Source: Desulfatiglandales bacterium
Lineage (GTDB): Bacteria > Desulfobacterota > DSM-4660 > Desulfatiglandales > Desulfatiglandaceae
Assembly (NCBI GenBank): GCA_963662465.1
Contig: OY759599.1
Coordinates: forward strand, 256,001-320,000
Direction of reading: 5' to 3'
Length of the DNA stretch: 64,000 bases
The notes beneath the pieces were generated by a model that searched no databases, was not told where the DNA came from, and saw only the letters and a program-made list of their open reading frames with translations. Shown here in pieces: positions 2,960 to 40,938 of this stretch. A program made the translations under genes and the position numbers. How positions within the stretch are numbered: position 1 is the first letter of the stretch; every line of letters starts with the position of its first letter.

Positions 2960-3119
2960 GAAATCTCTCCTTTCGGTTCGCTTCCACTGACCTCCACAAT
3001 GGAGATAAACAGGGTCGAACCGGGGTTCAGAGCCATGTTATGTATTTATTTGGGTTTGACAGCCGTCCATCTTCTGCGTGAACCACCGACGGATGGCGAC
3101 GACCTCAGCATTCATGGCC

Positions 3120-4242: not shown

Positions 4243-5538
4243 TCATAAATGAGCTATGTTTGGTAGCACTAGCATTGACGCCTGTTCGACAACTCTCGTT
4301 TTCGCTGAAAGGATTTCATAAATCAAACACAGATGATACCATTCCGCAATTGCTGTCAATAGCCACCCCGCTAACCAAAAGGAAATAAAAAACTTCCCCA
4401 ATTTTTTCACCACGATCACATATGCAAGCAACCCCAGCATATTCAATTCACTGAAAACGCGAAGGAAACTTGTGCTGTTGCCCCACACGGCCGTCCCTGT
4501 GCAGGCGGCCAGAAGTATGTAGAATATCCAGGAAATTAGCAAGAGGGGAGGAAAAAGCCTAATCCTACGGGAGAGGAAAATCTGGTAGGCAATAACCGTT
4601 GATGCCATCATGAGATAAAAGCCGGTTTTCGGATTTAGGTTTATGATGTTCTCGCCCATTGCGTGAATAAATCCCACCAACGGTGGCCCCAGTTTGGAAC
4701 TGGTCGCGCTGTCCAATAACACTGAAGACCAGTTGTTGTAAAGCCAGAGTTGCCACAGGAAAAAAGTGAGTGTCGGATACAACCAAAACGAAAAATGTGG
4801 GAAAAGATTGTCTTTGTTGCCCTTTTGGAGAATTTTCCCAATCAACCAGGTAAAGAAGCCCGCTGCAACAACCAAGGTCGTGGTTTCTCGGGACAACACC
4901 GCAAGAGACAACAATATGGCTGCCACAAGGCTTTTCCTGTGTGCTAGCATAAGCAGGCTTGAAATAACCATGAAAAGAGCCAGTGGTTCCGTCAAAAATC
5001 GTCCAACAGAGATAACAAATCCCGGGTAAAGAGCAAATAGAAGTCCATACCAAGCAGATATTCCAAAATAGCTCAATAACAGGCTGCTAACAAAGGTGCA
5101 TCCTGCAACTGCGGCGAGATTGATGGCCATCATAACAATTGGAGTAATTCCCGGATCTCCTCGCGCAACCAACCATGTTAAAAAGGGCAACAAGATTCGT
5201 TGTTGACGTAATAAAGGCGTATCCAAATTGACCCCAAAGGCTTCTTTTTGGTTGGTAAACGGATCAAGGGCCAGTCTGTAATAGAACTGACCATCATAGC
5301 CAGGTTTCGGGTGGGCATACTTCTTCCAGGGTATCTTATCAGATTCGGCATGGGTAAGTTCCTGTGAAAACCCATAGAGCCCATACAAGTGATTTTTTAT
5401 CAAAGGCATCAGTACAGAAATGAATGATACATAGATCACAATGGCAATGAATGTGACACCTAATGAAAGGAAAATATTTGAAACTCTGAATGGTTTGATG
5501 GATGAATCGGCCTTTTGATGGATTTGTTTCTCTGACAT
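4243..5538 (-). CDS. Polytopic membrane protein, GT-C-like (YDGQFYY motif; cell-surface glycopolymer formation-type)
   Basis: GYDGQFYYRLALDP, LTEPL and LSRET motifs; many hydrophobic segments. Confidence 0.6.
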   Translation of the reverse strand: MSEKQIHQKADSSIKPFRVSNIFLSLGVTFIAIVIYVSFISVLMPLIKNHLYGLYGFSQELTHAESDKIPWKKYAHPKPGYDGQFYYRLALDPFTNQKEAFGVNLDTPLLRQQRILLPFLTWLVARGDPGITPIVMMAINLAAVAGCTFVSSLLLSYFGISAWYGLLFALYPGFVISVGRFLTEPLALFMVISSLLMLAHRKSLVAAILLSLAVLSRETTTLVVAAGFFTWLIGKILQKGNKDNLFPHFSFWLYPTLTFFLWQLWLYNNWSSVLLDSATSSKLGPPLVGFIHAMGENIINLNPKTGFYLMMASTVIAYQIFLSRRIRLFPPLLLISWIFYILLAACTGTAVWGNSTSFLRVFSELNMLGLLAYVIVVKKLGKFFISFWLAGWLLTAIAEWYHLCLIYEILSAKTRVVEQASMLVLPNIAHL

Positions 5539-5878
5539 CGGGTAGTTTCCTCACTAGAGCTCATCAAGACGTGAGATATTCGTAAGTTCGAGGTAGATGA
5601 CGGTTTTTTACATGGATTAATTTAAGTCAACTACAACCGCTTGAAGGTGAGGTTTTTTCTCCCATTACCTAAAGGAGACATTAACCTCTAAACCTTCAGC
5701 TATGCTCATGATGCCTGGCAAGCCTGACAACAACCGGACGCAACAGCGCACACGAAATCCTCAAGAATTTGAATAACATTAAGCAGAACAATTAACGATA
5801 CTTTCGTAGCATAGCACAACTTTCGGAATCGGATAAAGAGATTTTTCGACACAGTCACAGTCATCTATGACATTTATG

Positions 5879-5967
5879 GTGCGACCGGAATGGTCGATAA
5901 CTAACTGGTGAGAGTCCAGTCACGGACCTGAAAGGAGGTAACGTGTAGGTGAAGGTAAGGGTGCCTG
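5879..5967 (+). ncRNA. 5' stub of a group II intron
   Basis: GTGCGACCGGAATGGTCGATAACTAACTGGTGAGAGTCCAGTCACGG resembles a group II intron 5' end and domain I start; nothing further follows. Confidence 0.5.
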
Positions 5968-6123
5968 AAGAAACTCCCATGTGTTGATTACCTCTTTGTT
6001 CTGCCAAGATGTTAAGGTGTTATTTTGACCGGTAGATATTTTGTGTAGAGCAGAAATTTGGAAACTCAAAGTGGTAAAAAAAATAGTTGGCTATTCAACA
6101 CAGTATGTTAGCTGTGATGCAAG

Positions 6124-6445
6124 TCAGGTAGGTGCTGGGATGAGGTTCGCCGTCAACAAAGCTGTATATTCATGGATATCGAATATGCCGAAAAACTGTT
6201 CCCAATAAGCAATGACGTATGACGGTTGAAATCCGGGGGCTCTTTTGGCAGCAATGGATTTTTCTCTAAAGCGCCTGCCGTATTTGGATATAAACAGGAT
6301 GTGAAGGTTGAACATGATTATCGAAAAGAAAATATGAGCGCGAATGGCGTTGAATTTCGAACAGTGGAATTCTTCCAGAGACCAGTATTGGCAGAGTTCC
6401 TTGATGGCATTATTCTCAATGAACCATCGCTCTCTATAAGCCTGA
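6124..6445 (-). pseudogene. C-terminal transposase fragment (IS4/IS5-like DDE), cut by the adjacent IS
   Basis: YRERWFIENNAIKEL matches the Y-xx-R-W-x-IE signature; the fragment ends at the TIR at 6446. Confidence 0.65.
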
Positions 6446-8099
6446 GAGCCTCTTGCAAAATACATTTGCGTTGATCTTTTCTCAGCAATTCTCATTTTGA
6501 GATCAGCAGTTCCTCATTCCGCTTCCCCACGTTTTGCGTAGGAAACTACATCTGGACGCTCTGCGCCCTATTGCGTGAATTTTGTTTCCTTCAACCCTAT
6601 GAGGGTTTGATACAGGACCCAGAGCGTCCCAAAAACCGTTCCCACGAAGAACGGGGGAACCCGATTGAAAATCCACAGCCATGATGAGAATTACTGATAT
6701 TTTATTGACTTAGCGTAATAATTGTGTGTAGTTACATCTGTTTCGGAAGTTAAGGTGTTTTGGATCGGAGGTCGCTCGAATATGGGTTTTTTGGAGAATA
6801 TTTCGCAATATTGGTATCGAGTGCAGATGGACCTTTTTCCGTGGATCGAAGACATAGTTGGGGAGTTAAGTGCAAAACAGCGTTTACTTGTCGGCATATT
6901 GGAACTTATAAGGATAGAAGAATTTGTCCCGTGTATGAGCGGATTGCCTGGGCGGAATCGTAAAGAACGGGCAGCTATAGCTCGGGCTTTTGTAGCAAAG
7001 GCCGTATACAATATGCCGACAACCCGATATTTGCTGGATAGATTGTCAAGCGACCAGAAGCTTTTGAGAATCTGCGGCTGGGAAAAGGGTCGGGATATCC
7101 CCGGTGAATCGACCTTTTCAAGGGCATTTGCCGAGTTTTCTATGACCCAATTGCCCACACGAGTGCATGAAGCGATGATAAATGGGACGGTGTCCAATGT
7201 GATAGTTGGGCACATTTCACGAGATTCGACAGAGATAGAGGGCCGTGAAAAGCCGGCGAAAAAAGAAATTGTGGCTGAGAATAAGCCGAAGAAGAAGCGC
7301 GGTCGAACAAAGAAAGGAGAAGAGAAAATTAGTGAGCCTACGCGCCTTGAGCGACAGAAAGAGATGTGTTTGGAAGAGATGTTGGACGACCTTCCCAATG
7401 CCTGCGATGTCGGAACCAAGAAGAATAGCAAAGGATACATGGAGAGTTGGATTGGTTATAAGTTGCACATTGACGCAGCCGACGGTCATATTCCTGTCAG
7501 TTGCATTCTGACATCAGCCTCACTGCATGACAGTCAAGTAGCCTTACCCCCTGGCAGAGATATCTCGGACAAGGGTCACGAACTTGTATGACCTAATGGA
7601 CTCGGCTTATGACGCCCCCATCATTAGGGAACACAGTCAGTCCATCGGCCACGTGCCGATTATAGACATCAATCCCCGCAGAAACACAAAACTGAAGGAG
7701 GAGCTGAAGTGGGAAGCCAAACGGCTCAAAGTTATTAACTTTGAGATGCCCGAGGACCGTCGTTACAACGAACGTTCCAATGTTGAAAGGGTGAACGGTC
7801 GACTGAAAGATGAATTCGAGGGCAAAAATGTTCGTGTGCGAGGGCATGTCAAAGTGATGGCCCACTTGATGTTCGGAATCCTGGCCCTCACAGCAGATCA
7901 ACTGCTACGCCTCGTCACATAGCTTCCTTATAACCCTACGTTTTAGTGTATATCACCGAAGACGAGGGTGGAGTATGTCCAAAAATCGTCATCAAACCCG
8001 GAAAGTTGACCAAAACTGCTCCAACAGCCACGCTCTTTGGCTCTCCCGAAAAACTTCCAGTAAAACTTACAGCCTCAGTTAGCATTTTGCAAGAGGCTC
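6446..8099 (+). mobile_element. IS5/IS1182-like insertion sequence
   Basis: 16-bp terminal inverted repeats GAGCCTCTTGCAAAAT (6446) and ATTTTGCAAGAGGCTC (ends 8099) enclose a transposase. Confidence 0.8.
6781..7922 (+). pseudogene. Transposase, frameshifted near the C-run at ~7546
   Basis: ORF1 has PGESTFSRAF, ISRDST and GYKLH..HDSQVA; ORF2 has LMDSAYD and YNERSNVERVNGRLK. Confidence 0.8.
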
Positions 8100-24722: not shown

Positions 24723-25742
24723 CTATAGACTGTCCAACCAGGCCATCAAATCCCCCTCATTTTCATAATGGAGTAATTCATCTATCTTGGAATCGTCCGT
24801 CAGGGCCGATTGCATGTGCCTCATGAACTGCCTTTGAATGTGGCGCCGTCGATCCAGGTCCAAATGCAGATAGATCGAAGTGGACTGGATGTTGTCATGC
24901 CCCAGATGATTCTTGATATCCGTGATGGGGTCACCGTTGTGGAGCATATCAACTGCTCGCGAGTGCCGGAATGAATGAACGGGATTGATATGTTTCAGAC
25001 GTTTTGGAGGGAGGGCCTTTTGGAGATATTTCCTGCAAATCCGGTAGATTCCATGGCGAGTGAATGACTCTCCCTTTTGATTGATAAAGAGCCGGTTTTC
25101 AAACATGGGCTTTGGGGATATCCGGTATTGTCGAATGTACAACTGAAGCAGGTCACAGGTTTTTGACTCAAGCTTTATGAGTCGAAACCGATTGCCCTTT
25201 CCCAGAATACTGAGGGTTTTCCGGTTGGGGTTAAAATAGTCGATATTCAACTCTGCAATTTCACTGGCCCTGGCTCCGGAATCGTAGAGCAGATGGAGCA
25301 CGGTGTAATCCCTGAACCCCTCTTTTCGTTTAAAATCAACCGCCTGAAACACCCGAAGTATTTCATCCTGGTAAAGAAATCCGATAAGACTCTTCTGCTC
25401 CCGTTTCTGGGGAATATTGAGGATAGCGGTTGCGGCATCCTGTTGATCCGGATGCATAAAGCGAATCATTTTGGCAAAGGATTTGAGTGCCGCAAGACGA
25501 TGATTCCGGGTTTTGGCCCCATTTTTCCTGTCACTTTGAAGATTTTCAAGGAACGAGACGAGAAGTTCCGTTTTAATATGTTCCACACGAAGCGATTTGA
25601 CCTTGATGTTGTAAAACGATGCCGCAAAGGGAAGAAAAATCCTGAAAGCATCCCGATAGGCCTTTATGGTCTGGTAACTGAGCCCCCTGATGGAAGTCAG
25701 GTATTGATCAAAGAACTGATGCACCAGGGGTGAAAGTTTCAT
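24723..25742 (-). CDS. Tyrosine recombinase (RitC-like, outer element)
   Basis: YDSGARASE, GKGNR, HSFRHS and LGHDNIQSTSIY motifs. Confidence 0.92.
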   Translation of the reverse strand: MKLSPLVHQFFDQYLTSIRGLSYQTIKAYRDAFRIFLPFAASFYNIKVKSLRVEHIKTELLVSFLENLQSDRKNGAKTRNHRLAALKSFAKMIRFMHPDQQDAATAILNIPQKREQKSLIGFLYQDEILRVFQAVDFKRKEGFRDYTVLHLLYDSGARASEIAELNIDYFNPNRKTLSILGKGNRFRLIKLESKTCDLLQLYIRQYRISPKPMFENRLFINQKGESFTRHGIYRICRKYLQKALPPKRLKHINPVHSFRHSRAVDMLHNGDPITDIKNHLGHDNIQSTSIYLHLDLDRRRHIQRQFMRHMQSALTDDSKIDELLHYENEGDLMAWLDSL

Positions 25743-25937
25743 TTGTTTACTCTCTGCCAAAGACAAAAATCAACGAGATCTTTGCGATTCATGGCATCTG
25801 AAACCCGGAGATAAACACTGGTGCAAATGTAATCCGTGTGACCCAGATAGGCCGCCAGTATGGGTAAAGCGTTTTGGGCGGATTCACCTGATTTCCGGAT
25901 TCTGTTGAGGGTGTTCACGGCAAAAGAATGGCGCAGC
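25739..25937 (-). pseudogene. C-terminal part of the interrupted outer RitB-like recombinase
   Basis: LRHSFAVNTL...LAAYLGH..TSVYL; joins 29421-30205 in frame once the insertion is removed. Confidence 0.9.
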
Positions 25938-26097
25938 AAATCCAAACGTTTGGATTTGCTGCGTTATCCAAACCTAAATAAAATCCAAACCTTTTCTTAA
26001 ATAACCTGATATTTAAGTATTTTTATCGGAAAAGGTTTGGATTTTATTGCATAACGTATGACCTTTTTATCAAACAAATGAACAGGAGGTCATACGA

Positions 26098-27336
26098 ATG
26101 AATGTACAAAATCTGCGGGATAATTATCCCAAACTCATTTCCTACATGGAAACCAACGGTTACTCAAAAACTTACGTTGACAGTTTTAAAAGGGAGATTA
26201 AAAAAACTCTGGCGTCTGAGGATTCAGAGGAATGGTCATGTTATAAAGATGTATATTTGGGATACACCAAAAAATCATATTCTCCTAACACTCTTCGCGA
26301 TAAACGGACTGTCATTGGAGCCATTGAGCAGTTTGATGTTCATGACAGATACCCGAATGGAAGGTGCAGGCATCAACTCTTCGAAAGGGGTTCTTATCCC
26401 TTGTTGTCACCGGAATTCAAATCCGTCATCGATCTTTACCATGAAGTTGAAAAGAAACGTGGCAAGAAAAAATCTGCTACCGTTTATACCGAATCCCATA
26501 ATGCATCCACATTTTTCTTATCCCTTCAGCAAAAAGGAATTAACGGCCTGGGAAAGACTACAGAAGAAGCCGTGCTTTCAATATTTATGTCCCCGGATGA
26601 AACCCTGCTCAAGAGCTGTTCTTACAAAAAAAACATTGCTGCGGTATTGAAGGCGTGTATCCCTTATCATCCAGAAACATGTCCTCAAATTTTAGCCTTC
26701 CTTCCCGCTTTAAGGGAAACTCGAAAAAATATTCAGTACCTTACATCGAAGGAAATCCAGAAAGTTAAGGGCGTACTGGCTGATGGTGAAAATCTTCTTA
26801 CGCTCCGTGACAAAGCAATTGGAATGCTTGCACTTTACACAGGCGTGCGTGGCTGTGATATTGCAGGATTGAAACTTGACGATATTGACTGGAACAGGGA
26901 TTTTATTGATATCAAACAGCAGAAAACAGCAATCCCTCTTGAACTTCCTTTAACAGCAGTTGTCGGAAATGCCATTTATGACTATCTGACGTCAGAGCGC
27001 CCACGCACAGAAAGCAGATATATTTTTGTTTCCCAGCTTAAACCATATGAACAACTGAAAAACAAAAGCATTGGCAACGTGGCAGCTCTGATCATGAAAG
27101 CAGCAGGTATCCGGCAGTTAAAAGGCGATCGGAAAGGATTTCATATCTTCCGCCATCACTTTGCCACAGAACTTTTGGGGAACGGAGTTCCTCAGCCTGT
27201 TATCAGCAGGACACTTGGTCACACTTCACCAGATTCTCTTGAATCATACCTAAGAGCAGATTTCCCGCATTTGAAGGAATGTGCCATCAGCATAGAAGGT
27301 GTTCCTGTACCAAAGGAGGTGTTTTACCATGAATAA
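26098..27336 (+). CDS. Tyrosine recombinase (RitA-like)
   Basis: YTGVRGCDI, QQKT, HIFRHHFA and LGHTSPDSLESY motifs. Confidence 0.93.
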   Translation: MNVQNLRDNYPKLISYMETNGYSKTYVDSFKREIKKTLASEDSEEWSCYKDVYLGYTKKSYSPNTLRDKRTVIGAIEQFDVHDRYPNGRCRHQLFERGSYPLLSPEFKSVIDLYHEVEKKRGKKKSATVYTESHNASTFFLSLQQKGINGLGKTTEEAVLSIFMSPDETLLKSCSYKKNIAAVLKACIPYHPETCPQILAFLPALRETRKNIQYLTSKEIQKVKGVLADGENLLTLRDKAIGMLALYTGVRGCDIAGLKLDDIDWNRDFIDIKQQKTAIPLELPLTAVVGNAIYDYLTSERPRTESRYIFVSQLKPYEQLKNKSIGNVAALIMKAAGIRQLKGDRKGFHIFRHHFATELLGNGVPQPVISRTLGHTSPDSLESYLRADFPHLKECAISIEGVPVPKEVFYHE

Positions 27337-28303
27337 ATTCACTTCTTTTCTTGCGCCGCTCATGCAGGCATATGTTTTCTATCAAAAAGCATCCGGACGT
27401 TGGAGTGAAGCTTCTTCTTATGGACCAAACCTCATCCTGTTTGACCGATACTGCAAGAAGCAACATCCGGAAGCTGCACTTCTATCTCAGGAAATGGTGA
27501 ATGGATGGTGCCATCAGCGCGACACAGAATCCAACAATTCGTGCAGATCAAGAATCAATGTTGTTGTAAGTTTTATACGATACTTGAGAAAGCGCGGAAA
27601 AACAGATGTCATGGAGCCTGAAATTCCAAGGAAAGAGCGATGCACATATATTCCCCATTCTTTTACAGGTGTTGAGCTGGAAAATTTTTTCCATGCTTGT
27701 GATAGCCTGCCTTCAGTATCCCACACTCCCGAACAGCGATCACGGAAAATAACTATTCCTGTGTTCTTCCGTTTTCTTTACAGTAGTGGAATACGAACTT
27801 ATGAGGCAAGAATGCTGAGGGTTAAGGACGTCGACTTGTGCAATGGGATTATGAATATCCGTTATTCCAAGGGGAGTGCTCAGCACTACGTAGTGCTACA
27901 TGACTCCATGAATAAACTTTTAAAAATATATGACGAAGCTATACGGAAGCAGTACCCTCACAGAACTTATTTTTTCCCTGCAAAAGGTAACACTTTCCAT
28001 AAAAGGAAATGGGTACAGACAAATTTTCGGGAATTGTGGGATAAATATAATAGCTCTCATGCTACTGCATATGAGCTCAGGCACCATTATGCCATAAAAA
28101 ACATCAACCGCTGGACAGATGAAGGCTTTGGGTTTGATGCGAAACTGCTCTATCTCAGCAAAAGCATGGGACACAGCACACTGGAAAGCACAAAATATTA
28201 TTATTCCCTTGTTCCCGGAATGGCTGACATCTTGGAAGAAAAAACAGGAATGGATTTCGAAAGCATTGTGCCGGAGGTGGATTATGAAGAAAGCGACGAA
28301 TGA
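27329..28303 (+). CDS. Tyrosine recombinase (RitB-like)
   Basis: YSSGIRTYE, SKG, YELRHHYA and MGHSTLESTKYY motifs. Confidence 0.93.
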   Translation: MNKFTSFLAPLMQAYVFYQKASGRWSEASSYGPNLILFDRYCKKQHPEAALLSQEMVNGWCHQRDTESNNSCRSRINVVVSFIRYLRKRGKTDVMEPEIPRKERCTYIPHSFTGVELENFFHACDSLPSVSHTPEQRSRKITIPVFFRFLYSSGIRTYEARMLRVKDVDLCNGIMNIRYSKGSAQHYVVLHDSMNKLLKIYDEAIRKQYPHRTYFFPAKGNTFHKRKWVQTNFRELWDKYNSSHATAYELRHHYAIKNINRWTDEGFGFDAKLLYLSKSMGHSTLESTKYYYSLVPGMADILEEKTGMDFESIVPEVDYEESDE

Positions 28304-29333
28304 GTCTGTTGTAATCGCACGCCATATCAATGCTTTTTTGAATGAATATGTTCCTTCCCAGAAAAGTCACAGCAGCCACACATTGAAATCCTATCAGTAT
28401 GCTCTGGCTTTATATATCGGTTTTTTGGAGGCCAAAAAAGGAATAAGTACAGAAAGCTTGTGTGGTGGATGTTTCAGAAGAATAATAATCGAGGAATGGC
28501 TGCAATGGCTGATAGAAGTGCGTTGTTGCAGGCCGGAAACCTGTAACAACCGGTTAGCATCCTTAAGAGCATTCCTAAAATACATGGCCAGTAGGGAAGT
28601 CCGCCTGCTGTACCTTTCCGAGGAGGCAACAAGAATTCCACGGAAAAAGGAAATACGCAAAAGAGTAAAAGGGATGAGCAAAAAAGCAGTACGGGTATTG
28701 TTATCGGTTCCGGATTTATCCAGAAAAACAGGGCGAAGGGATCTATCACTTATGATTGTCATATACAGCACTGCCGCCAGAATAGATGAAATACTGTCTT
28801 TAAAAACAGAACAACTTCATTTGGACGTGGAAAAGCCGAATATCACCATCATTGGAAAGGGAAGCAAAATAAGAACCCTGTATCTTCTACCTAAGGCTGT
28901 TGCACATTTAAAAAAATATCTGGGAGAATTTCATGGTGATACTCCAGATCCAGAAGCTTATGTTTTTTATTCAAGGAACACCGGATCACATGGGAAAATG
29001 AGTCAGACTGCAGTAAACAAGCAACTGAAAAAACATGCCAGAGCCGCCCATGAAATATGTGATGAGGTACCACGAGATCTTCATGCGCATCAACTGAGAC
29101 ATGCAAAGGCCTCCCACTGGCTGGAAGATGGCATGAATATCGTACAAATTTCATTTCTTTTAGGGCATGAGCAGTTACAGACAACGATGATATATATGGA
29201 CATTACCCTAGAGCAGGAATTGAAAGCCCTTGCAACACTTGAAGATGAAAACGACAAGAAGGTATCAAAGAAATGGAAAAATCAAAAAGATGGTCTGGCG
29301 GATTTCTGTGGCGTTAAGTCAATGAAGAAGTAA
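28284..29333 (+). CDS. Tyrosine recombinase (RitC-like)
   Basis: YSTAARIDE, GKGSK, HQLRHAKA and LGHEQLQTTMIY motifs. Confidence 0.93.
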   Translation: MKKATNESVVIARHINAFLNEYVPSQKSHSSHTLKSYQYALALYIGFLEAKKGISTESLCGGCFRRIIIEEWLQWLIEVRCCRPETCNNRLASLRAFLKYMASREVRLLYLSEEATRIPRKKEIRKRVKGMSKKAVRVLLSVPDLSRKTGRRDLSLMIVIYSTAARIDEILSLKTEQLHLDVEKPNITIIGKGSKIRTLYLLPKAVAHLKKYLGEFHGDTPDPEAYVFYSRNTGSHGKMSQTAVNKQLKKHARAAHEICDEVPRDLHAHQLRHAKASHWLEDGMNIVQISFLLGHEQLQTTMIYMDITLEQELKALATLEDENDKKVSKKWKNQKDGLADFCGVKSMKK

Positions 29334-29420
29334 AAAATAAAATCCAAACTTTTTTGTATCGAATTCCTTAAATATCAGACATCTTTAAAAAAGGTTTGGA
29401 TTTTATTTAGGTTTGGATAA

Positions 29421-30205
29421 CGCAGCGAATGAGGTGTGGGTCCGTTGAAGTTCACATTGCCCAAAACTTTTCTGGGTTGCTTTAAGCCAGTGTCACTTAC
29501 CGCCTTATGAAACGCGGCCCTGACAGTAGTGTCACTCAAACTCCGCTCTTTTCTGCCGGCAAACAGAAAGGGATTCTTATCGTTTGGGCGAAGACTTTGG
29601 CGGACAGAGAGATAGTTTTCGATCTCTGCCACAACTTTTTTGGGAATCGGAATGATTCTGTCTTTGCCGAACTTGGTCCTTTCAATATAGAGGGTGGCAT
29701 CATCCCGGCGGTAGTTGCACCGCAAAAGTTTGATGGGTTCAGAGATCCTTGTTCCGCACCGGGCCATGACCAGCACCACCATATAAATAGCCAGGTCAGT
29801 CAAAAAACATCCGTTGGTCGTTCGAATGTTTTTGGAGACCGACTTCAACAGCAGGTCGATTTGATCGGGAGAGAAAACAAAGGGTACAACGACGTTTTTT
29901 TTAAGCCTCGGAACATCCTGTAAGGGATTATGGTCCACATAACCACGACCGGCAAGAAAATGGAAGAAGCCCCGAATCGAGGAAAAAATAGCGTTGATAC
30001 TCCGCGTTTCCTGGGTGAGTGCTGCTCTCATTTCAAGGAAAAAATCAGGCGTAAAAGAATGCCGGTCAGCTTCTGTTTTCCGAAGATAATCATCAAAAGT
30101 CAGAAGATGTGAGAGAACAGACCCCTTTTTATAGCCGAGACTTTTACGACGATACCGAAGGTAATCCTCCATCTCAGAGGCAAGAAAGCTTTTAAAGGGT
30201 CTCAT
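29421..30205 (-). pseudogene. N-terminal part of the outer RitB-like recombinase, interrupted at PHSLR|H
   Basis: CGTRISE and TKFGKDRIIP motifs; ends ...PTPHSLR and then reads into the inner TIR. Confidence 0.9.
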
Positions 30206-31139
30206 TGAGCAAAACCTTTCTCATCAGTTCGATGTGGATGTGGAGATACCGCTGAGTGCACCGAATGTTCCGATGCCCCAGCATTTCCTTGATTTCATAA
30301 ATGGAACGACCCACAATCAGTAAACCCTGTGCATAGCTGTGTCTGAGCCAATAGGCACTCGAAGACAGTCCGGCTTCTCTCATGGCGTTTGAGATATGAA
30401 AACCAACCAAATTGGGCCTCATTGGCCTATAGGGCTTGTCGCAGGTCAAAAATAGTTCTCTGCAATCGCTTTCAGACCGGGCCTTGTGGACATAAGCCGC
30501 AATGGCTTTGAGGGTCTTATGGGGAATGGGCAGCACAACGGGATTGCCATTTTTCCTGCTGTTTATGGTGATCTCTCCTTCTTGAAACGATATGTCATCC
30601 AGGGTGATGCGGCTGATCTCATCGGGTCTCAAGCCCAACGAGTAGGCCAGAACCGTCATGGCATAGGTTCGAATCTGTGTTGGCGTCTCCAGGCTGAGGC
30701 TTTCGAAGAGTGTCTTGATTTCATTCGGCCGGAGAAATTTTGGCGGTCTTAACTGGTTGAACACCCGGGGACTCACCACCCCATAAGACAGGTCTTTTCT
30801 GGTAATCTTTTCGTCAAACAGATAGCTTAAAAATCTTCTCAGCTTACCTCGATAGATATTTCGGGTCTGGGTGGAAAAGGATTTGAGAAAATCGGCCTGA
30901 AAAGCATCAATATGTTCGAGCTTCAAACCGGAAAGTGTAATTTGGTGCTGTTCAAGATAGAGGTGAAATGAAGCCAGGACCCGTCTTGTGGCTTTGGCAT
31001 TCTTACTGGAAATGACCTGACGTTCACGGATACAAAAGAGATGCTTCTCGTAAATATCGGGGAGGCGAATCTGGTGGTTTTGAACCGGGTGGGGCGCCAT
31101 CCGGTCTTTTCCATACCGTCTGATATCATCTGTTCCCAT
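30192..31139 (-). CDS. Tyrosine recombinase (RitA-like, outer; N-terminus possibly shortened)
   Basis: YSLGLRPDE, YWLRHSYA and LGHRNIRCTQRY motifs. Confidence 0.88.
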   Translation of the reverse strand: MGTDDIRRYGKDRMAPHPVQNHQIRLPDIYEKHLFCIRERQVISSKNAKATRRVLASFHLYLEQHQITLSGLKLEHIDAFQADFLKSFSTQTRNIYRGKLRRFLSYLFDEKITRKDLSYGVVSPRVFNQLRPPKFLRPNEIKTLFESLSLETPTQIRTYAMTVLAYSLGLRPDEISRITLDDISFQEGEITINSRKNGNPVVLPIPHKTLKAIAAYVHKARSESDCRELFLTCDKPYRPMRPNLVGFHISNAMREAGLSSSAYWLRHSYAQGLLIVGRSIYEIKEMLGHRNIRCTQRYLHIHIELMRKVLLNETL

Positions 31140-32965: not shown

Positions 32966-33760
32966 ACCGGATAGGTCGGAGGCCTTACGGCCTCCTTCCC
33001 TACACGGCTCAAGCCTCCGGTAAGGTTTCCCTGGTGGGGATTCCCGCAGATTTGCATCTGCTTCACGTTACAAGCCGGCTGTCAGAATAGCCAAAGGCAC
33101 ACGGGGCGCACCAGCCTCAAGGGCCGTCATTCGCCCGTTTCACTGGCTGCTTTCCCCGCTTTCATCTGATTCCTCCGGTGTTCACGTGATCGGACACCGC
33201 GATGAACGTCTGCCTCCTTACGGAGCCGGGAATGTTTCACCCGGTATCCGAACCATTACAGCCCGGCATTCGCTTTTTTCAGTCTCCTACTCCGGCCCGC
33301 CAACAGCATGCCTTACGGTTAGCCTGCCCCCAAAAGGGGCGACGGGACCGGGTTTCCATGTTCCACATAGTTGATCCAATGGATGACTTAGGTGCGCCCT
33401 CTACGCCGGTGGTACAACAGTTCCGTGCAGGCAGTTGACAGACCTGCAACCTGACCACATCCGCTGACACTGGGCAGCGGCATAAGACCTGTTAATCCTC
33501 GTAGGCCCTTCGCTTGTGATCGACGCTTAAAGACATTCAGATACCTTCACCATATCATCCGACCCTGGCCCTTAACCGGGGAGGATTCCCGGAGGGGTTC
33601 TCCTGTCGCCATTCAAACCCAATTCGGTACGTTGTCCGCAGGGCTTCACACCCCGTCATCAGCGCAACGGCAGCATGCCTGCGTAGGGTCCGGTAGGAAC
33701 ATACCGGGTACTACATGTAACTACATGAATACACTCAAACTATGCGACTTCGTGTCGCAA
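32966..33760 (-). ncRNA. ORF-less group II intron (relative of the 35583-38147 intron), D5 partly deleted
   Basis: 5' end TTGCGACACGAAGTCGC; shares GCAGCCAGTGAAACGGGCGAATGACGG (RT start region) with the other intron; 3' end GAGCCGTG|TAGGG..GGAGGCCGTAAGGCCTCC..CCTATCCGGT. Confidence 0.8.
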
Positions 33761-33845
33761 GCCAACGTTAAGCTCACCAGCGCTTCCTCCGGCCCCCGCT
33801 AGGACCGCAGGACTATCAGGCGTCTGGTGCAGCGCTTGGTTCGCG
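33760..33845 (-). other. Integron attC site
   Basis: Minus strand CGCGAAC-CAAGC-GCTGCAC...GTGAGC-TTAAC-GTTGGC; L'' carries the extra G. Confidence 0.85.
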
Positions 33846-34096
33846 ATTCCAGCGGCTAATTGGAATAACGCAGATTTTGGCCCTAAAAACGGAAATATAG
33901 CCCCAAAAAGGAGCAATATTTAGAAACAAACTCTTATATTTTTAGTCAGTTAGCTTGGCCCGACCCCATTTGCACCCCCAATGCTACGGTTCCTTAAAGG
34001 CATGTTTTTGGGGGCGAAAAAAAGTTTTCAAGGTCCAAAACCACCCTATTCCTATCACTAAAACACTGAATGCATTGTTGTATTCTCGGTCCGACC

Positions 34097-35290
34097 CTAG
34101 CCCGCATTGCCTTTGGACCCGGCAAGAACATCAGTCAGCTTTCCCAACCCCCATTCCAAGCTGTACTTGTTGCCGTGCCGCTCCCAGGCCTTGAGACATA
34201 CCAAAAAGACGGTGACCGCCGCCAACCCCAGGACAAATGAGGGAATGGCGCCCATCAAGTCGAATTCCGGATGCCGCCCAGTAAAGAGATACATGATCCA
34301 TAGCGGCAGGGCGATTAGGGGGTAATGTATAAAATAAACGGTTAATGAATGTCTGCTCATGCGCTTAAACCAGGCAGCAAATACCCCGGTTCCGGGAACA
34401 GGGTCTCTTCCATCGTAGTAATAGTACAACAAGGTAAACACTATCAGGGCTTGCCCCACCTGTAGGTAAACCATGGTGTTGGAATCGGGAAAGAGACTGA
34501 AAGGCGAGATGTAATCTGTTATGTGAGACGATTCGGCCCGCAAAAGGCTGGCATAACCGGCGGCAAACGAAAGAAAGATCAGAACAAACCCGATAACCAA
34601 CAGAAAAGGGAGATCTCGTTTCATCTGATTGGCTACGATACGCCGTCCGATCACTAAACCGAACAGGGGAAAGACAAGCCAGGGAAAAACGGGGAAAAAT
34701 CCCGTTAAAAAAAAGCCCCTTATCATTTTAGAAAACCGCCAACTGGGTTCATATTCGCCTGCAGGCTCCACCAGGATGCCTGGAAGGTATTCGGAAATGA
34801 CGGGTGTTTGAATGAATTGTCCTCCCCAGTCGGTCGCAAAATCCACAAAGCCCCGAAGCCAAGGCGACATGAAGACAATTGCTGCGGCCAGAAGGAGAAG
34901 CAGCCATGAAGGTAAAAACCGGCAGAAGTGAAGGACAATGTAGGCTGAACCGATCAGGGTCAAAACGTCCCAGTTCCACACGTTTTTCGGTCCCCAGGCG
35001 AGAACGTTCATCAGGAGTCCGGCAGTAAACACGTATGCGCCGCGAAGAAAGGCCTTCTTCATCAGGTTGTCTTCACCCATCCCTTTTCTTCGTTCGCTGG
35101 AAACCGCCTGACTCACCCCTACCAGCAATAGAAACCAGACCGCACCGAAATCGCCAAGGGCATGGTCCATAATGAAATAAAGCGGATTTTCCGCAGCCTG
35201 AGCATTTCCGTACTCAAGCATATAGTGGCAGATGACCATTCCCGTTAGGGAAAAACCTCTCAGTACATCAATGGATACAATACGCTGCAT
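34097..35290 (-). CDS. Cassette gene: DUF1624/HGSNAT-like membrane protein
   Basis: RIVSIDVLRG, DVLTLIG, FPVFPW and SLTVYFIH motifs; multi-TM. Confidence 0.8.
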   Translation of the reverse strand: MQRIVSIDVLRGFSLTGMVICHYMLEYGNAQAAENPLYFIMDHALGDFGAVWFLLLVGVSQAVSSERRKGMGEDNLMKKAFLRGAYVFTAGLLMNVLAWGPKNVWNWDVLTLIGSAYIVLHFCRFLPSWLLLLLAAAIVFMSPWLRGFVDFATDWGGQFIQTPVISEYLPGILVEPAGEYEPSWRFSKMIRGFFLTGFFPVFPWLVFPLFGLVIGRRIVANQMKRDLPFLLVIGFVLIFLSFAAGYASLLRAESSHITDYISPFSLFPDSNTMVYLQVGQALIVFTLLYYYYDGRDPVPGTGVFAAWFKRMSRHSLTVYFIHYPLIALPLWIMYLFTGRHPEFDLMGAIPSFVLGLAAVTVFLVCLKAWERHGNKYSLEWGLGKLTDVLAGSKGNAG

Positions 35291-35655
35291 GGCTCCTCAT
35301 TTTCAATACACTGAAATTATTCGAATCATCCTTACAGATATGCGTTTCCGGAAAATATAGAAAAAATCCGATCGGGTCCATAAGCATTTTTGAGCTCTGT
35401 CAACAGATGAAAATCGCACAGAATTTCTTTCAGTCAATCATCGTCAAACGATTGGATCTTTTGCCTCATTGGCAGAAAACGACATTCAGATGTTTTGGGT
35501 TCCGAAAAAACACATTGGCTCCAATGAAAAAAACGCAAGCAATTAGATCCAATCACGACTTGCGCGGCCTTTTCCGTTATGGGTCGAGTAGCCAGGGGAT
35601 GTTGCCATCCCCCAGCCCTCTAAGAACCGTGCGTGCGCCGTTAAACGCACACGGC

Positions 35656-37513
35656 TCAAGCATTCCAAAGGCAAGCCCTTTCGGGGCTACCCGGTTGTGA
35701 CGTTTTATGCTCTTTACGCCTGTCTGCCTTCTGCTGACTGCGTTGGGCATATTGTTTCCTGAAATATTGTTCATATTTCGGATCGAAGGGGTTCGCATCC
35801 CCTCGAATTTTGACATGGCGTTTTATCTTGACGTCGTAAGCCTTCTCAAGTTCAATTCTGGCGGATTTCGCATAGCCGTCCTTGATCACCGCTGAAAAGG
35901 ACCACGGGCGAGATCCTTTTGACCAGTATTTATCCACCAGCCAACTCTTACTCTTGCCCGAATGTTTCCTCCTCATCCATTGCCAAATATAGCTGTAGAT
36001 ACGGTGATCTACAAGCCCGAAAGTTCTACCGGAAACCACATGCCTGTGGTAATTGGCCCACCCCCTGATTTTGGGATTGAGTACTTTAATCAGAATGTCG
36101 GCTCTTGATGCCGCATGCTTTCGGATTGTTTTCCGGATATTGCCTAAAAAGGCTTTCACGTTTTTGCGAGAGGGCTTTATCAAAAGTTTTCCTCCGTATT
36201 TGCGTGAACTTTGTCCGAGAAAATCAAATCCTTCTTCTATCCTTGTGATCAACGTCTTTTCCGCTGAAAGCGAAAGACCTCTTCGCTCCATAAATGCTTC
36301 AATTTCCAGCTTGATCTCATTTAGCATCTCTCTGGAATTCCCGGTGATGATAAAATCATCAGCGTAGCGGATTACGTTTATCTTGGACCGTATATTTCCC
36401 TGAATTCTTATCGGGGCGGTGCTTTTGGCTGCCGCTTCCAGACCATCCAGGACCATATTAGCCAATGTTGGAGAGATAATCCCGCCTTATGCAAAGAAAG
36501 TAATTATGCAAAGTAAACCGTAAAAGCCATAATAATTCAAGAGATTCTTGTTGATTTGCTTAGCATAATCTCCACTTATGGTGAATGAGAAAAAGTTCAA
36601 AAAATCATTAGACAAAACAAAGGAGCTATTTTTATCCAAAACAAACGAAGAATGCTGCATCATTTACTTGGCTTTCAAGTCTGAAGTAGTCGTGATATTA
36701 TGCAAAGTAAATTCAGTGCATATGCTTGAAATATTGCACCTTAACTGATTTACTTTGCATAATCGTTAACTTTGCATAAGGCGGGTTATGCAAAGCTTTG
36801 CATAACCCGCCTTGCGGGGTTCCTCTGTATGTCGGATAGAGCTTGCCTCCTTCTACATACCCGGCTTTCAGGCATTTCTGAAGCGTCCGTTTATCCATCG
36901 GGATATTTTCGAGTATCCATTGATGGCTGATTTCATCAAAACAGGCCTTTATATCTCCCTCCAGAATCCATACGGGTGAGTAGCGCTTGGCCAGAGAAAT
37001 AAAACACTGACCGATGGCATTCGCACATCCCCGATAGGGTCTGAACCCGTAAGAGTTCGGATCGGCGGTGGTTTCCGCCACCGGATCAAGCGCCAATTTG
37101 TACAATGCCTGCATGGCTCTGTCCTTCATTGTGGGAATGCCCAATGGGCGTTTCTTGCCGTTTTTCTTGGGTATGTAAATTCGGCGCAGCGGTTTGGGTC
37201 GGTAGGCTCTTCGGCGCAGGTCGTTTACCGCTTGCATTTTGTCAATGTGGGTGGACCATATGACTTTATCCACTCCCGGTGTGCGTTTACCCCGGTTGGA
37301 AGTAACGCGCTTGATAGCCAACAACTTGGCATAAAACGAATGAGTCAAAAGCCACTGTATCACCTTGACTTTTCCCCATCGCTTTTCCTTCACAGCTTTT
37401 GCGATACGCACCTGCAGTCTTCTAACATGCTCCCCGGCGGTTTTCCAGTTTATGGATTTCCACCAGTTTGTTCCGTCCAAAGGTGCACCAGTCGCCAGAA
37501 CGGCCACCGTCAT
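35656..37513 (-). pseudogene. Group II intron reverse transcriptase/maturase, split at GTPQGG|IISP
   Basis: KRPLGIPT..DRAMQ, SYGFRP, GDIKACFD, GTPQGG | IISPTLAN, RYADDF, FDFLG and LNPKIRGWANY; no obvious HNH domain. Confidence 0.93.
36487..36779. mobile_element. 293-bp non-autonomous RIT-like mini-element
   Basis: Ends TTATGCAAAG-N7-TTATGCAAAGTAAA and TTTACTTTGCATAA-N7-CTTTGCATAA; no recombinase-sized ORF. Confidence 0.85.
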
Positions 37514-38147
37514 TCGCCCGTTTCACTGGCTGCTTTCCCCTGTTTGAAGATTCTACAGATTATCTCGCAATGGAACACCGGTCAGAAGTCTGCTCTCTTT
37601 CGAGCCGGATCATGTCGGTGATTACCATCAATCCGTATCCCCATCATTACAACGAGGCATTCGCTTTTTCTGACATCCTTTACCCGCAACCCCATGGGCT
37701 CACCTTGCGGTTCGCTTTCCCCGTGGGGAGGGTTAACGGGCTTACCATGTTCCGCGTAAGTACCCGAGCAGGTTAGGTTCCGCCCTTACGCCGGTGGCAC
37801 GACATCTGCGACGGAGGAGTTCGCAGCCTCCGTTCCTGGCCACGTACCTTTTGGTCCAAGCCTTTCAGCATCTTAGGCTTGTTCTCGTGACGACGCTGCA
37901 GTGATTCACATGTGTTAACCGTACTGCTCAATTCTAGCTCCCTCACCGCATGATGCTTGCAGAGTTGAGGTCCCCTCGCGGTTCCCTCTCCCGGAAAATT
38001 CCGCGGGCTTCATTGTCCCGAGAGCTTCACATCCCCGGATTACTCCGGACGCATGTCCCGGTAGAATACCTGTTGCAGAAAACAGGGTTTTGTTGTATGG
38101 TTTATATTGATATATAAAACAGATACTTACGCGACATCACGTCGCAC

Positions 38148-38229
38148 GCGAACGATAAGCTCACCAGCGCCTTGCACCGGCCCCCGCAAGGACCGCAGAA
38201 CTTTCAGGCGTCTGGTGCAGCGTTTTGTT
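38148..38229 (-). other. Integron attC site with introns at both ends
   Basis: Minus strand AAC-AAAAC-GCTGCAC...GTGAGC-TTATC-GTTCGC; R'' is restored to TGCCAAC once 38230-39056 is removed. Confidence 0.88.
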
Positions 38230-39056
38230 GTGTGCCGGGCACGGCACGTGTTCTTAAGGGTGCGCGCAATGTACCATGCTTCCGATATTTTACGCAAGTC
38301 CCAGACCCAGCCAGGTAGTGGCGAAGGGTGTAGCGGTATCACAACCGGGTACCCGGTAACGGGCCTGGAGAGGCAGTGGCCTTGCCGCGGCAGGGCACCG
38401 CAAACGCACGGGGCGACGAACAGAAATCGAGTGAGGCGGGTCTGGTGGGACGAGTTCGCAACACAGAACAAAGTCCTCTAACTACTATAGGCCAGGCACG
38501 TTGTCGGCGCTCGTGTGCGGAAAGACACGTGTTTACCCCGGGAGGCCCGTTGCGTCTCGTAGGGAGCTGCAACTGAAATCTACCGGAATATAAGGGAAAA
38601 CCGGTAAAACAAAACCCTGGCGTCAGGAACATTTCGAGTCAGAGCCCTGACGAGCCCGGCCTATTGGTCGGGAAACACAAACAAATGGACTCGACAGATT
38701 GCGGAAACTACGAGTGAGCGAACCGCAAGGGGAGCCCACCGCGTAACGGGAGTCAGCAGAGGGCATATTAAGCCGGAGAAACGAGCCCTGAATAAAGGGA
38801 GGCCTCACTCCGGTGAAGGCCCGGACTGTGCCACCTGCCGAATGGCAGGGGTAAATGGTTGTGTTTGTCAAAGAACGTGTACTTATTGGTCTAATGCAGC
38901 AGTAGCTGAAAGGTCGATAACGTCGCATTCTGGAAAACCCGGTAGGGCGGAACCTGTTTTATCCGTGCCTGCTCTGACCAGCCGAATCGCCGTATACGGA
39001 CCCGTATGTACGGTGGTGTGGGAGGGGGGAGCTGTGAGGCTCCTCCCTATCCCTAT
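38230..39056 (+). ncRNA. ORF-less group IIC intron in the attC bottom strand
   Basis: 5' end GTGTGCCGGGCACGGCAC; short D5 with CGC triad (CGCCGTATACGGACCCGTATGTACGGTG); D6 ends CCCTAT; no RT ORF. Confidence 0.88.
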
Positions 39057-39357
39057 GGCAGCCCATAGTTCAGGTAATAGCACGGAATTACGGAGGAAAT
39101 ATCTTGGCACTTTGCCTCATAGATGAAGTCTTATTTCCTCTGCAGATTTCGTCTATGCCTGTCACATTCCGCAAAATGTCATAGGGAAAAACAGCTTTGC
39201 ACAACTCCCCTTTGAAAATAATTTTATTCCCTATTCGTAATTCCCATCACTTTAAATTACCCTTCTGACCTCTTCATTTGCCTTCGGATATACTGCTCCC
39301 GTGCGCCAGTCAACAAGAAGCTCAACAGTTCGGTTCTGCAGTCAGAGGAACGTATGG

Positions 39358-39792
39358 TTAGGTGATTTGATTTACACATTTTTCTGCATTCTCAATAAGT
39401 GTAGGAATATTCGGTTTATTGAAACCCATTTCTGGTGCAGGAATTCGGTTATGTTTAATATCGGGTGGAATATGTTTATGATGGGGGTATGAACTTTTCA
39501 GAACAGGATCATTCGGATGAGGCTGAGAATCATACCAGTATAGCTTTTCTTCATCTTTCCATACCTCATAGCCGTACCATTCTATAGTAAGCGGTAAACG
39601 ATCATACAAGAGTCGTTCCCTCACGATAATTCGGACGGAACCGTCAAAATACAATTCACCTGCTACTCTCGCGAGTGTTGCCCCCACCCGGACGAAAGTT
39701 ACGGTCGAATGGCGTACAACGGGGAACTGTTCAGTAATCGTGTACAAAAACAGTTCATAATCTTCCGGTGAGCGAAGCGGATTTTCCTGCAT
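39358..39792 (-). CDS. Cassette gene: DUF6516/TumE-like toxin
   Basis: YGY..WYDSQPHP...SYPHHKH motif; overlaps its upstream partner. Confidence 0.7.
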   Translation of the reverse strand: MQENPLRSPEDYELFLYTITEQFPVVRHSTVTFVRVGATLARVAGELYFDGSVRIIVRERLLYDRLPLTIEWYGYEVWKDEEKLYWYDSQPHPNDPVLKSSYPHHKHIPPDIKHNRIPAPEMGFNKPNIPTLIENAEKCVNQIT

Positions 39793-40057
39793 AGGATACC
39801 TTTATCAGTCCTTTTAGACCCGATGATGATTGGCGGATACGCTGAATCTCATTCCGGTATTCTGCCTGCCGGAAAAGCCATGTCCGGTAGATGCTTGCCC
39901 ATTCACCAAAATCCAGAACCCAATTGTCATCTTCAGGTTCTTCACCCTCAATATATGCAGCATACAGGGTTTCAGAGCGAATACCGTATTTGCGCTCAAA
40001 ATTTAGGAGTTCCGTTTCAAGAGCATGAATATCAGTCAGAGTATCATATAAATTCAT
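39755..40057 (-). CDS. Cassette gene: TumA-like antitoxin
   Basis: L..FERKYG..SE..Y....G......DF.EW pattern. Confidence 0.65.
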   Translation of the reverse strand: MNLYDTLTDIHALETELLNFERKYGIRSETLYAAYIEGEEPEDDNWVLDFGEWASIYRTWLFRQAEYRNEIQRIRQSSSGLKGLIKVSYAGKSASLTGRL

Positions 40058-40434
40058 TGTTTTTCCTCATCAATTGGCTGGTCGCCCTCGAACCCTGTTA
40101 ATCGCTCGGCATCATATTAGAAAATGACGTAGCGCCTTGCGTCAAAGATAACGCCTTATTTTCTTTGCAAAGTTGGCTCGGATTTCCCACTCTCGCACAA
40201 TTTTACAAGATCATAAGGATTTTGAATAGTTCCCCCAATAGTTATCATACGTCAGGCGGAGCATTCAACCAAAAACCGTATGGAAACAATGCAAATCACA
40301 CTGAATTACATAGGAAATAGGGCAAAGCTTTAGCACATAGATGATGCCTCCCATCACATATGGATGTTTCCCATCACTTTCGGCTACCCACCAAACCTCT
40401 TCATACCTATTCGCAGTTGCTCCTCACGTCCGCA

Positions 40435-40559
40435 CGCCAACATTGAGTTAAGCTGTAATTTTTCGGCCCAAAAATTGCCGCCCTCCCAACGTGAAAAACG
40501 GCGACAAACTCTCAAATGCAATTTTTGGGACGAAAAATATCAGTCTTGAACCATTGGTT
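40435..40559 (-). other. Integron attC site (longer type)
   Basis: Minus strand AAC-CAATG-GTTCAAG...CTTAAC-TCAAT-GTTGGCG, with an internal hairpin ATTTTTCGGCCCAAAAATTGC / GCAATTTTTGGGACGAAAAAT. Confidence 0.8.
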
Positions 40560-40938
40560 GTGTGCCGGGCACGGCACGTGTTCTTAAGGGTGCGCGTAAT
40601 GTATCATGCTTCCGATATGTTACGCAAGTCCCAGACCCAGCCAGGTAGTGGCGAAGGGTGTAGCGGTGTATCACAACCGGGTACCCGGTAACGGGCCTGG
40701 AGAGGCAGTGGCCTTGCTGCGGCAGGGCACCGCAAACGCACGGGGCGACGAACAGAAATCGAGTGAGGCGGGTTTGGTGGGACGAGTTCGCAACACAGAA
40801 CAAAGTCCTCTAACTACTATAGGCCAGGCACGTTGTCGGCGCTCGTGTGCGGAAAGACACGTGTTTACCCCGGGAGGCCCGTTGCGTCTCGTAGGGAACT
40901 GCAACTGAAATCTACCGGAATATAAGGGAAAACCGGTA
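40560..40938 (+). ncRNA. 5' fragment of the same IIC intron
   Basis: Near-identical to 38230-38606; inserted after GGTT of the attC; lacks D5/D6. Confidence 0.88.

Follow-up and report, generated by a model that had tools for sequence, protein, structure and literature searches.

Group II introns of two kinds probably home independently to the attC sites of the integron cassette array studied here, and the kind that enters the top strand appears to be guided by pairing of its exon-binding site 1 (EBS1) with the GTT of attC. The array belongs to a Desulfatiglandales bacterium (GenBank assembly GCA_963662465.1) and lies within 64,000 nucleotides of contig OY759599.1 (positions 256,001 to 320,000), a stretch that we call the window. 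It contains three attC sites on the minus strand of the window, the top strand of attC being minus and the bottom strand plus, and it is interrupted by four introns, at all of which Rfam detects group II domains. The argument draws on insertion position, strand, EBS1 pairing, repeated independent insertion and one cassette-sized duplication, all of which can be read from the sequence. The introns, attC sites and their parts are as follows.

32966..33760, minus strand: type B top-strand intron (CL1/IIB1-like), without an open reading frame (ORF) and with domain V mostly deleted, 6 nt into the R' box of attC0
33434..33439, minus strand: type B EBS1, stem-loop sequence GUCAAC, pairing with GTTGGC with one G-U
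33512..33517, minus strand: candidate EBS2 of type B, ACAAGC, pairing 6/6 with the family-consensus L'/spacer and 4/6 at its own site
33761..33845, minus strand: attC0, crossover G at 33766 (own detector, fold)
35583..38147, minus strand: type A top-strand intron of 2565 nt (CL1/IIB1-like), at the head of the cassette from 38152 to 33766
35583..35659, minus strand: type A domains V-VI (Rfam; fold z -6.3)
35656..37513, minus strand: type A reverse transcriptase (RT)/maturase ORF, interrupted (RVT_N, RVT_1, GIIM)
36489..36813, no strand assigned: 325-bp insert resembling a miniature inverted-repeat transposable element (MITE), with terminal inverted repeats, inside the type A RT ORF
37819..37824, minus strand: EBS1 of type A, GCGAAC, pairing 6/6 with GTTCGC
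37884..37889, minus strand: candidate EBS2 of type A, partial pairing with L'/spacer
38148..38229, minus strand: attC1, with introns at both ends, crossover G at 38153 (own detector, fold)
38230..39056, plus strand: class IIC intron in the R'' box of attC1, bottom strand, without an ORF, domain V CGC triad
39057..39060, minus strand: displaced outer portion of attC1 R''
40436..40559, minus strand: attC2, of an attC family unlike the others, crossover G at 40441 (fold)
40560..40938, plus strand: 5' fragment of a IIC intron, 379 nt, in attC2 R''

The four junctions, which a preliminary description of this DNA had placed from its letters, all lie at the coordinates, on the strands and in the R boxes given there. 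The top-strand junctions read GTTCGC|GTGCG at 38147 and GTTGGC|TTGCG at 33760, and the bottom-strand junctions TTGTT|GTGTG at 38230 and TGGTT|GTGTG at 40560. That description also had the attC at 38148-38229 sandwiched by both classes, and we found it flanked by a bottom-strand IIC intron and by a top-strand CL1/IIB1-type intron six bases into R'. All four window introns are damaged and none is intact. The attC sites carry R''-L''...L'-R' boxes, a bulged L'' base and an R' matching the R'' of its own cassette, and all three fold on either strand. Both sites with top-strand introns score 8.5 in our attC detector, which was purpose-built and is not the IntegronFinder model; a score of 7 is reached by 0.3% of 3000 random genome positions (pass rates of 0.3% there and 2.0% at 3000 random GTT sites).

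Under the mechanism that we propose, the bottom strand would receive a IIC intron behind the GTT of R'', and type A and B introns would enter the top strand by reverse splicing, 5-6 nt inside R'. The AAC of EBS1 would read the invariant GTT crossover core together with the adjacent variable bases, EBS2 would loosely read the end of L' and the spacer, and an RT without endonuclease would presumably be primed from replication. Such an insertion would preserve G|TT and both L boxes and lie in the direction of the cassette gene, so the intron could splice from the array transcript. It would also become the first part of the downstream cassette and as such might be moved by IntI.

The pairing was examined in 50 of 66 aligned copies (8 truncated, 3 tandem, 3 belonging to the +2 lineage described below and 2 unparsed copies were dropped), with EBS1 and EBS2 loops identified from local folds and alignment, not from a full domain I model. 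EBS1 is held in a domain I stem-loop in which the AAC pairs with the GTT core. Loops of the form NNNAAC face a GTT at -6 in 33/37 copies and NNAACG loops a GTT at -5 in 12/13, with none crossed, and EBS1 forms on average 4.9 of 6 pairs. At the variable positions -1 to -3, 69 of 99 pairs are Watson-Crick, compared with 44.9 after shuffling (0/10000 shuffles were as high, among copies that are related to one another), and one copy (L180) has a compensatory CAUUAC loop facing a GTAATG site. EBS2 scored 4.5 versus 3.25+-0.20 in 20 genome copies and 4.17 versus 3.34+-0.16 in 27 others, so that its pairing with the end of L' and the spacer is above chance and incomplete. The preliminary description had proposed folding domain I to see whether EBS1 and EBS2 complement R' and the upstream bases; EBS1 does so in both window introns (6/6 pairs each, one of them a G-U), so the non-complementary loops that would have told against its idea were not observed, and EBS2 exceeds the null only by partial pairing.

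The 8.16-Mb host genome holds 12 type A 5' ends (like 38147), 17 type B-like ends (like 33760) and 10 IIC ends. All 29/29 A and B ends lie in integron context: 21 at attC, 4 at attI-type sites, 3 in tandem behind another intron and 1 at half an attC. Among the 21 that pass the detector, 19 are at +6 (six bases into R'), one is at +1 and one at +7. Two further intron lineages of this genome, with 13 and 5 copies, never pass it at their 5' ends (0/18). Near-identical intron copies have differing flanks and differing 3' exons. The +6 position is fixed by 15 intron-free copies of a cassette with an IS91-like transposase gene and is reached without target duplication, and at the site 441432/440620 the first base of an older +5 intron was apparently split off by a +6 intron, so the insertion position seems to be measured from the attC side. 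Three side observations belong to these loci. At G000:C1 3329531-3334806, introns A, A and B are stacked head to tail behind a single attC. The lineage at G000:C1 453399 and its 12 further copies follows one conserved repeat hairpin in 11/13 cases. The IS91-like transposase gene occurs as a cassette in 17 copies, with a tandem run spaced 1.6 kb (G000:C1 4413960-4425223; L261), one copy having 12-bp complementary ends.

Relatives in other genomes show the same preference. We collected at least 164 outside 5' junctions by RT and by a 5'-end pattern common to attC and non-attC introns, dropped 15 with short flanks or weak assignment, and calculated pass rates on unique flanks, all of the following among the matches listed. 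The flanks are attC in 26/42 type B relatives, 2/3 type A relatives and 2/3 members of the +2 lineage, compared with 0/82 other CL1-like introns, and GTT stands at -5/-6 in 35/42 type B relatives versus 1/82 other CL1-like introns; shuffled flanks passed in 28/1800 cases. The survey of homologous flanks that the preliminary description had called for, run here with our own detector, thus places these homologues mostly at attC, and the opposite outcome, which would have told against its idea, did not occur. Intron-less homologues in other genomes confirm insertion at +5 and at +2. The +2 lineage, a CL1-like group in G206 (L026, L031, L033), inserts within the R' GTT, separating its two T, at three different sites. 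Three further CL1-like introns outside clades A and B (L054, L078, L083) stand behind a common motif with a terminal GTT (+3), which the detector does not pass. No IntI was found beside the outside junctions, where the loci searched are short.

The detector is too noisy to give attC occupancy across 8 Mb (337 hits at score 8 in the real sequence versus 380 in the reversed sequence), and we therefore took one attC family as the denominator, 48 of whose 55 hits passed. Of these 48 sites, a top-strand intron is present in 19, a IIC intron in 6 and both in 4 (a count that includes site 3353252, added by hand). An enrichment of double occupancy was not borne out (4/48 versus 2.4 expected, Fisher p=0.20), and the counts fit independent occupation of attC by top-strand and IIC introns.

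Several findings weigh against the proposed pairing-guided homing. GTTCGC occurs 2851 times in the host genome, so a further determinant besides EBS1 would have to confine the introns to integrons, with the hairpin, EBS2, IntI and the RT all candidates on the present data. Some occupied sites pair with EBS1 at only 3-4 of 6 positions, while at many sites EBS2 pairs poorly and at attI-type sites it does not pair. Among the matches listed, 16/42 outside type B flanks fail the detector, several of them resembling degenerate attC, two type B copies (L101, L175) have neither GTT nor an EBS1 match, and the two type A copies at attC come from one genome (L016, L017) while L138 fails. At -1, the two copies of the IS91-like cassette that carry an intron do not share the base of any of the 15 empty ones, a difference that suggests co-conversion or flanks exchanged from one intron copy to another. 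In the host genome we found no cassette that occurs at two places with an A or B intron, and the contig data, the only data examined, give no sign of splicing.

One other account, which is compatible with EBS1-guided homing and which we regard as unlikely to be the leading cause, is that the ribonucleoprotein recognises the top-strand hairpin, as in IIC-attC introns, with EBS1 merely setting the register. It gains from a top strand that folds comparably to the bottom strand, from the several sites that pair at GTT only and the very different attC sequences in use, and from a hairpin role speculated on in the available text of PMC7923331. It is harder to reconcile with the covariation of EBS1 with the variable bases and its shift with the offset, with EBS2 pairing to L' and spacer bases that a hairpin would lock, and with an insertion 41 nt past an attC (L178) that forms 6/6 EBS1 pairs at a site failing the detector. 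That the introns are no homing elements at all, and that a few old insertions were spread solely by IntI and by recombination between copies, is hardly credible. Exchange between copies is real enough, as seen from domain VI ends that have changed places and from unusual 5' junctions held in common, such as the ATGCG start of two copies, but the 17 3' exons examined are all different save for two subfamilies of one multi-copy cassette, R' triplets vary widely, tandem stacks form at one junction, and the same position recurs across unrelated attC families and genomes.

A coupling to IntI, in which the ribonucleoprotein would enter a top strand exposed by IntI-associated folding of the bottom strand, excised cassette circles or attI, is improbable in our view and turns on two data sets. 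With replication strand assigned from the global GC-skew extremes and introns counted by hand, 31/33 top-strand introns lie on the leading-strand template, unlike IIC introns (the lagging-strand template in 10/10) and two non-integron lineages (11/13 and 5/5 on the lagging-strand template). Array orientation forces this bias, which therefore shows only that the leading-strand template is usable. The second is attI, where an intron, or 9 nt of an intron start, stands at +5 to +7 in 5/11 homologues, a share similar to the 19/48 of the main attC family although attI has no hairpin. Cassette transport explains these copies equally well, and an IntI gene or fragment adjoins only 3 of the 5 attI-type sites. 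Since attI has neither a hairpin nor an EBS2 match, transport by IntI is the simplest account of the attI copies, and direct insertion is another possibility. The IntI adjoining the intron-bearing attI family (L008:469-1773; G000:C1 6845296) has a long N-terminal extension, in open frames of 474-490 aa, and such extended forms are common within the order.

Returning to EBS1-guided homing, the preliminary description had the top-strand intron become the start of the next cassette and travel with it. The first half holds in the window: the R' triplet before 38147 matches the R'' at the far end of its own cassette at 3/3 positions (the triplet at 38150-38148 finds its match in the attC0 R''), as the R' triplet of attC2 also does in its cassette, and the intron thus physically starts the downstream cassette. 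Travel itself is supported by the attI-type copies and by one exact duplication, whose intron is class-E-like; A and B introns offer no such case. This 4977-bp cassette is present in two copies 42.6 kb apart, which show 0 mismatches up to their end at the terminal GTT, whereas the cassette preceding it differs at 12 of about 1630 bases. The exact duplication supports travel of an intron with its cassette; alternatively, it may reflect a conversion tract that stopped in the attC. The class-E-like lineage sits at +6 of R' in 3/4 copies, with the remaining copy in tandem. A common 3-kb flank behind seven copies was likewise considered as cassette transport and proved to be an element between domains V and VI. 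This element, 3.17 kb long with a large serine recombinase, is present in at least 7 intron copies at ~99% identity (G000:C1 3323114-3326287 and six further copies; L008:3380-5473).

Types A and B have domains I and V-VI, a GUGYG-type start and an AGC triad (Rfam RF02012, RF00029; fold), with type B starting UUGCG like the published intron UHB.I2. Intact A and B copies encode an RT/maturase above the TIGR04416 cut-off with RVT_N, RVT_1 and GIIM; the type A ORF of the window has no HNH match, and intact 510-aa copies exist elsewhere in the host genome. The MITE-like insert hits the same conserved RT motif in 7 type A copies, in either orientation, and is also found in two class-E-like RTs. We tentatively assign both types to CL1/IIB1 from RVT_N, whose presence we take to be a mark of CL1, and from a likeness by eye to the UHB.I2 protein; our two RT trees were quick searches without bootstrap or class-labelled references (in the second, L021 is labelled attC although its junction is absent from the contig). 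Type B RTs form one clade with a Shimodaira-Hasegawa-like approximate likelihood ratio test (SH-aLRT) support of 100 in both trees. Type A, 54% identical to type B, is its sister at 86 in one tree and falls below 80, unplaced, in the other, and we therefore do not treat A and B as an established monophyletic group. The RT phylogeny suggested in the preliminary description accordingly secures clade B and leaves A loosely attached, and the "second attC-homing lineage" proposed there survives in that its homologues sit mostly at attC, without resolving into a single clade. The +2 lineage branches apart from A and B, and together with the class-E-like lineage this gives the use of top-strand attC at least three origins, possibly four.

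The IIC introns at 38230 and 40560 have the CGC triad and lie on the bottom strand in R'', antiparallel to the cassettes, as do S.ma.I2 and other IIC-attC introns in the available text of PMC3001079 and PMC4424553. The intron at 38230 is 827 nt long, compared with 2123 nt for an RT-bearing copy. All 10/10 IIC copies in the host genome are preceded by TTGTT or TGGTT, and the insertion point, after the full GTT, falls one base past the TTGT/T consensus quoted in PMC7923331. Types A and B differ from IIC-attC introns in class (AGC triad), in using the other strand and the other R box, in running in the same orientation as the cassettes, and in having a 6-bp EBS1 and an EBS2.

Elsewhere in the window, the following cassette genes and recombinases were identified.

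34097..35290, minus strand: cassette gene of the HGSNAT_cat / Acyl_transf_3 family
39358..40057, minus strand: TumE/TumA-like toxin-antitoxin cassette genes (Pfam TumE above cut-off; NCBIfam matches below cut-off)
24723-31139: six clustered tyrosine recombinase genes just beyond the array, none of them an integron integrase

No IntI gene above the TIGR02249 cut-off lies within the 64-kb window; the host genome has 5 such matches.

Short intron starts also occur at empty cassette starts. The window provides one possible example.

40431..40435, minus strand: 5-nt intron-start match GTGCG at +6 of the empty attC2 R', a possible scar

We tallied 71 unique cassette starts with no intron at their junction, counting among them starts from which an intron was removed for reading. 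GTGCG lies at +6 in 3 of these and occupies +7 in 4, versus 1 at any later offset, and a 4-nt form is found 7 times at +6 and 5 times at +7; the longest stubs measure 8 and 9 nt. A G at +6 is to some extent predicted by R'' complementarity. Stubs mark 12/71 host starts versus 0/43 in genomes without the intron pattern (p=0.003), controls that look more AT-rich. Intron-bearing relatives have 6/73 (p=0.08), weak evidence in that three come from one cassette family whose start recurs as the 3' exon of a +5 intron. A pattern search over 105 genomes gave one further locus, and the mirror test for IIC stubs at R'' gave 1/59 with 5 nt. Extended R'/R'' complementarity was rejected as their source, being unseen at the stub cassettes with an R'' found. 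Short matches shared by the two ends of the intron could have yielded several of the stubs by deletion, and imprecise intron loss is thus the likelier cause. It is very doubtful that top-strand introns attach new DNA to R', thereby helping to build or rewire the 5' ends of cassettes, with stubs as the footprints; such a role would mirror the one at cassette 3' ends proposed for IIC-attC introns (the Leon and Roy 2009 model as summarised in PMC7923331).

One published intron foreshadows these results. UHB.I2 (Sonbol and Siam 2021, PMC7923331) is a complete IIB1/CL1 intron found as one copy in a soda-lake cassette array, and like types A and B it is described as CL1, without endonuclease, in cassette orientation, directly behind an attC and with a UUGCG start. 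Its coordinates (attC c(7295..7364), intron c(5096..7296)) give +5 if the attC ends at the seventh base of R', and its printed 5' end and RT N-terminus resemble types A and B by eye. Its authors noted poor exon conservation and speculated on a hairpin role, and the available text of that paper defines no lineage and no R' register, nor does it cover attI copies, double occupancy or the pairing of EBS1 with GTT. It also describes H.ha.F1/F2, class E fragments in a cluster of attC sites lacking an integron integrase (CALIN); our class-E-like RT resembles H.ha.F1 by eye, likewise in cassette orientation, and our introns are complete and at +6 of R' where H.ha.F1/F2 are 5'-truncated. A single top-strand IIC intron at attC, from Enterobacter cloacae, is cited there as well. 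In their available text PMC3001079, PMC4424553 and PMC12901181 name only IIC introns at attC, and PMC7923331 is the one report of non-IIC introns at attC that we found in a search that left aside subscription journals and bioRxiv supplements.

To that case the window and its relatives add a tested independence of double occupancy, multiple origins, evidence for cassette travel, and stubs. As far as the available text of reviews and integron papers goes, attC targeting is treated as a IIC speciality. Judging from sequence comparison, the use of the top strand of attC by non-IIC introns is real and widespread and probably reflects base-pairing-guided homing, with at least three non-IIC lineages apparently using the opposite strand (CL1 at +5/+6, CL1 at +2 and class-E-like at +6), and the main lineage would read by base pairing the one invariant part of a variable site. 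This gives a test of how retroelements recognise attC. Inside cassettes, introns would have a route between hosts, and arrays could be deleted or reshuffled through the homology between repeated introns. The origin of cassettes would become testable if stubs mark their formation.

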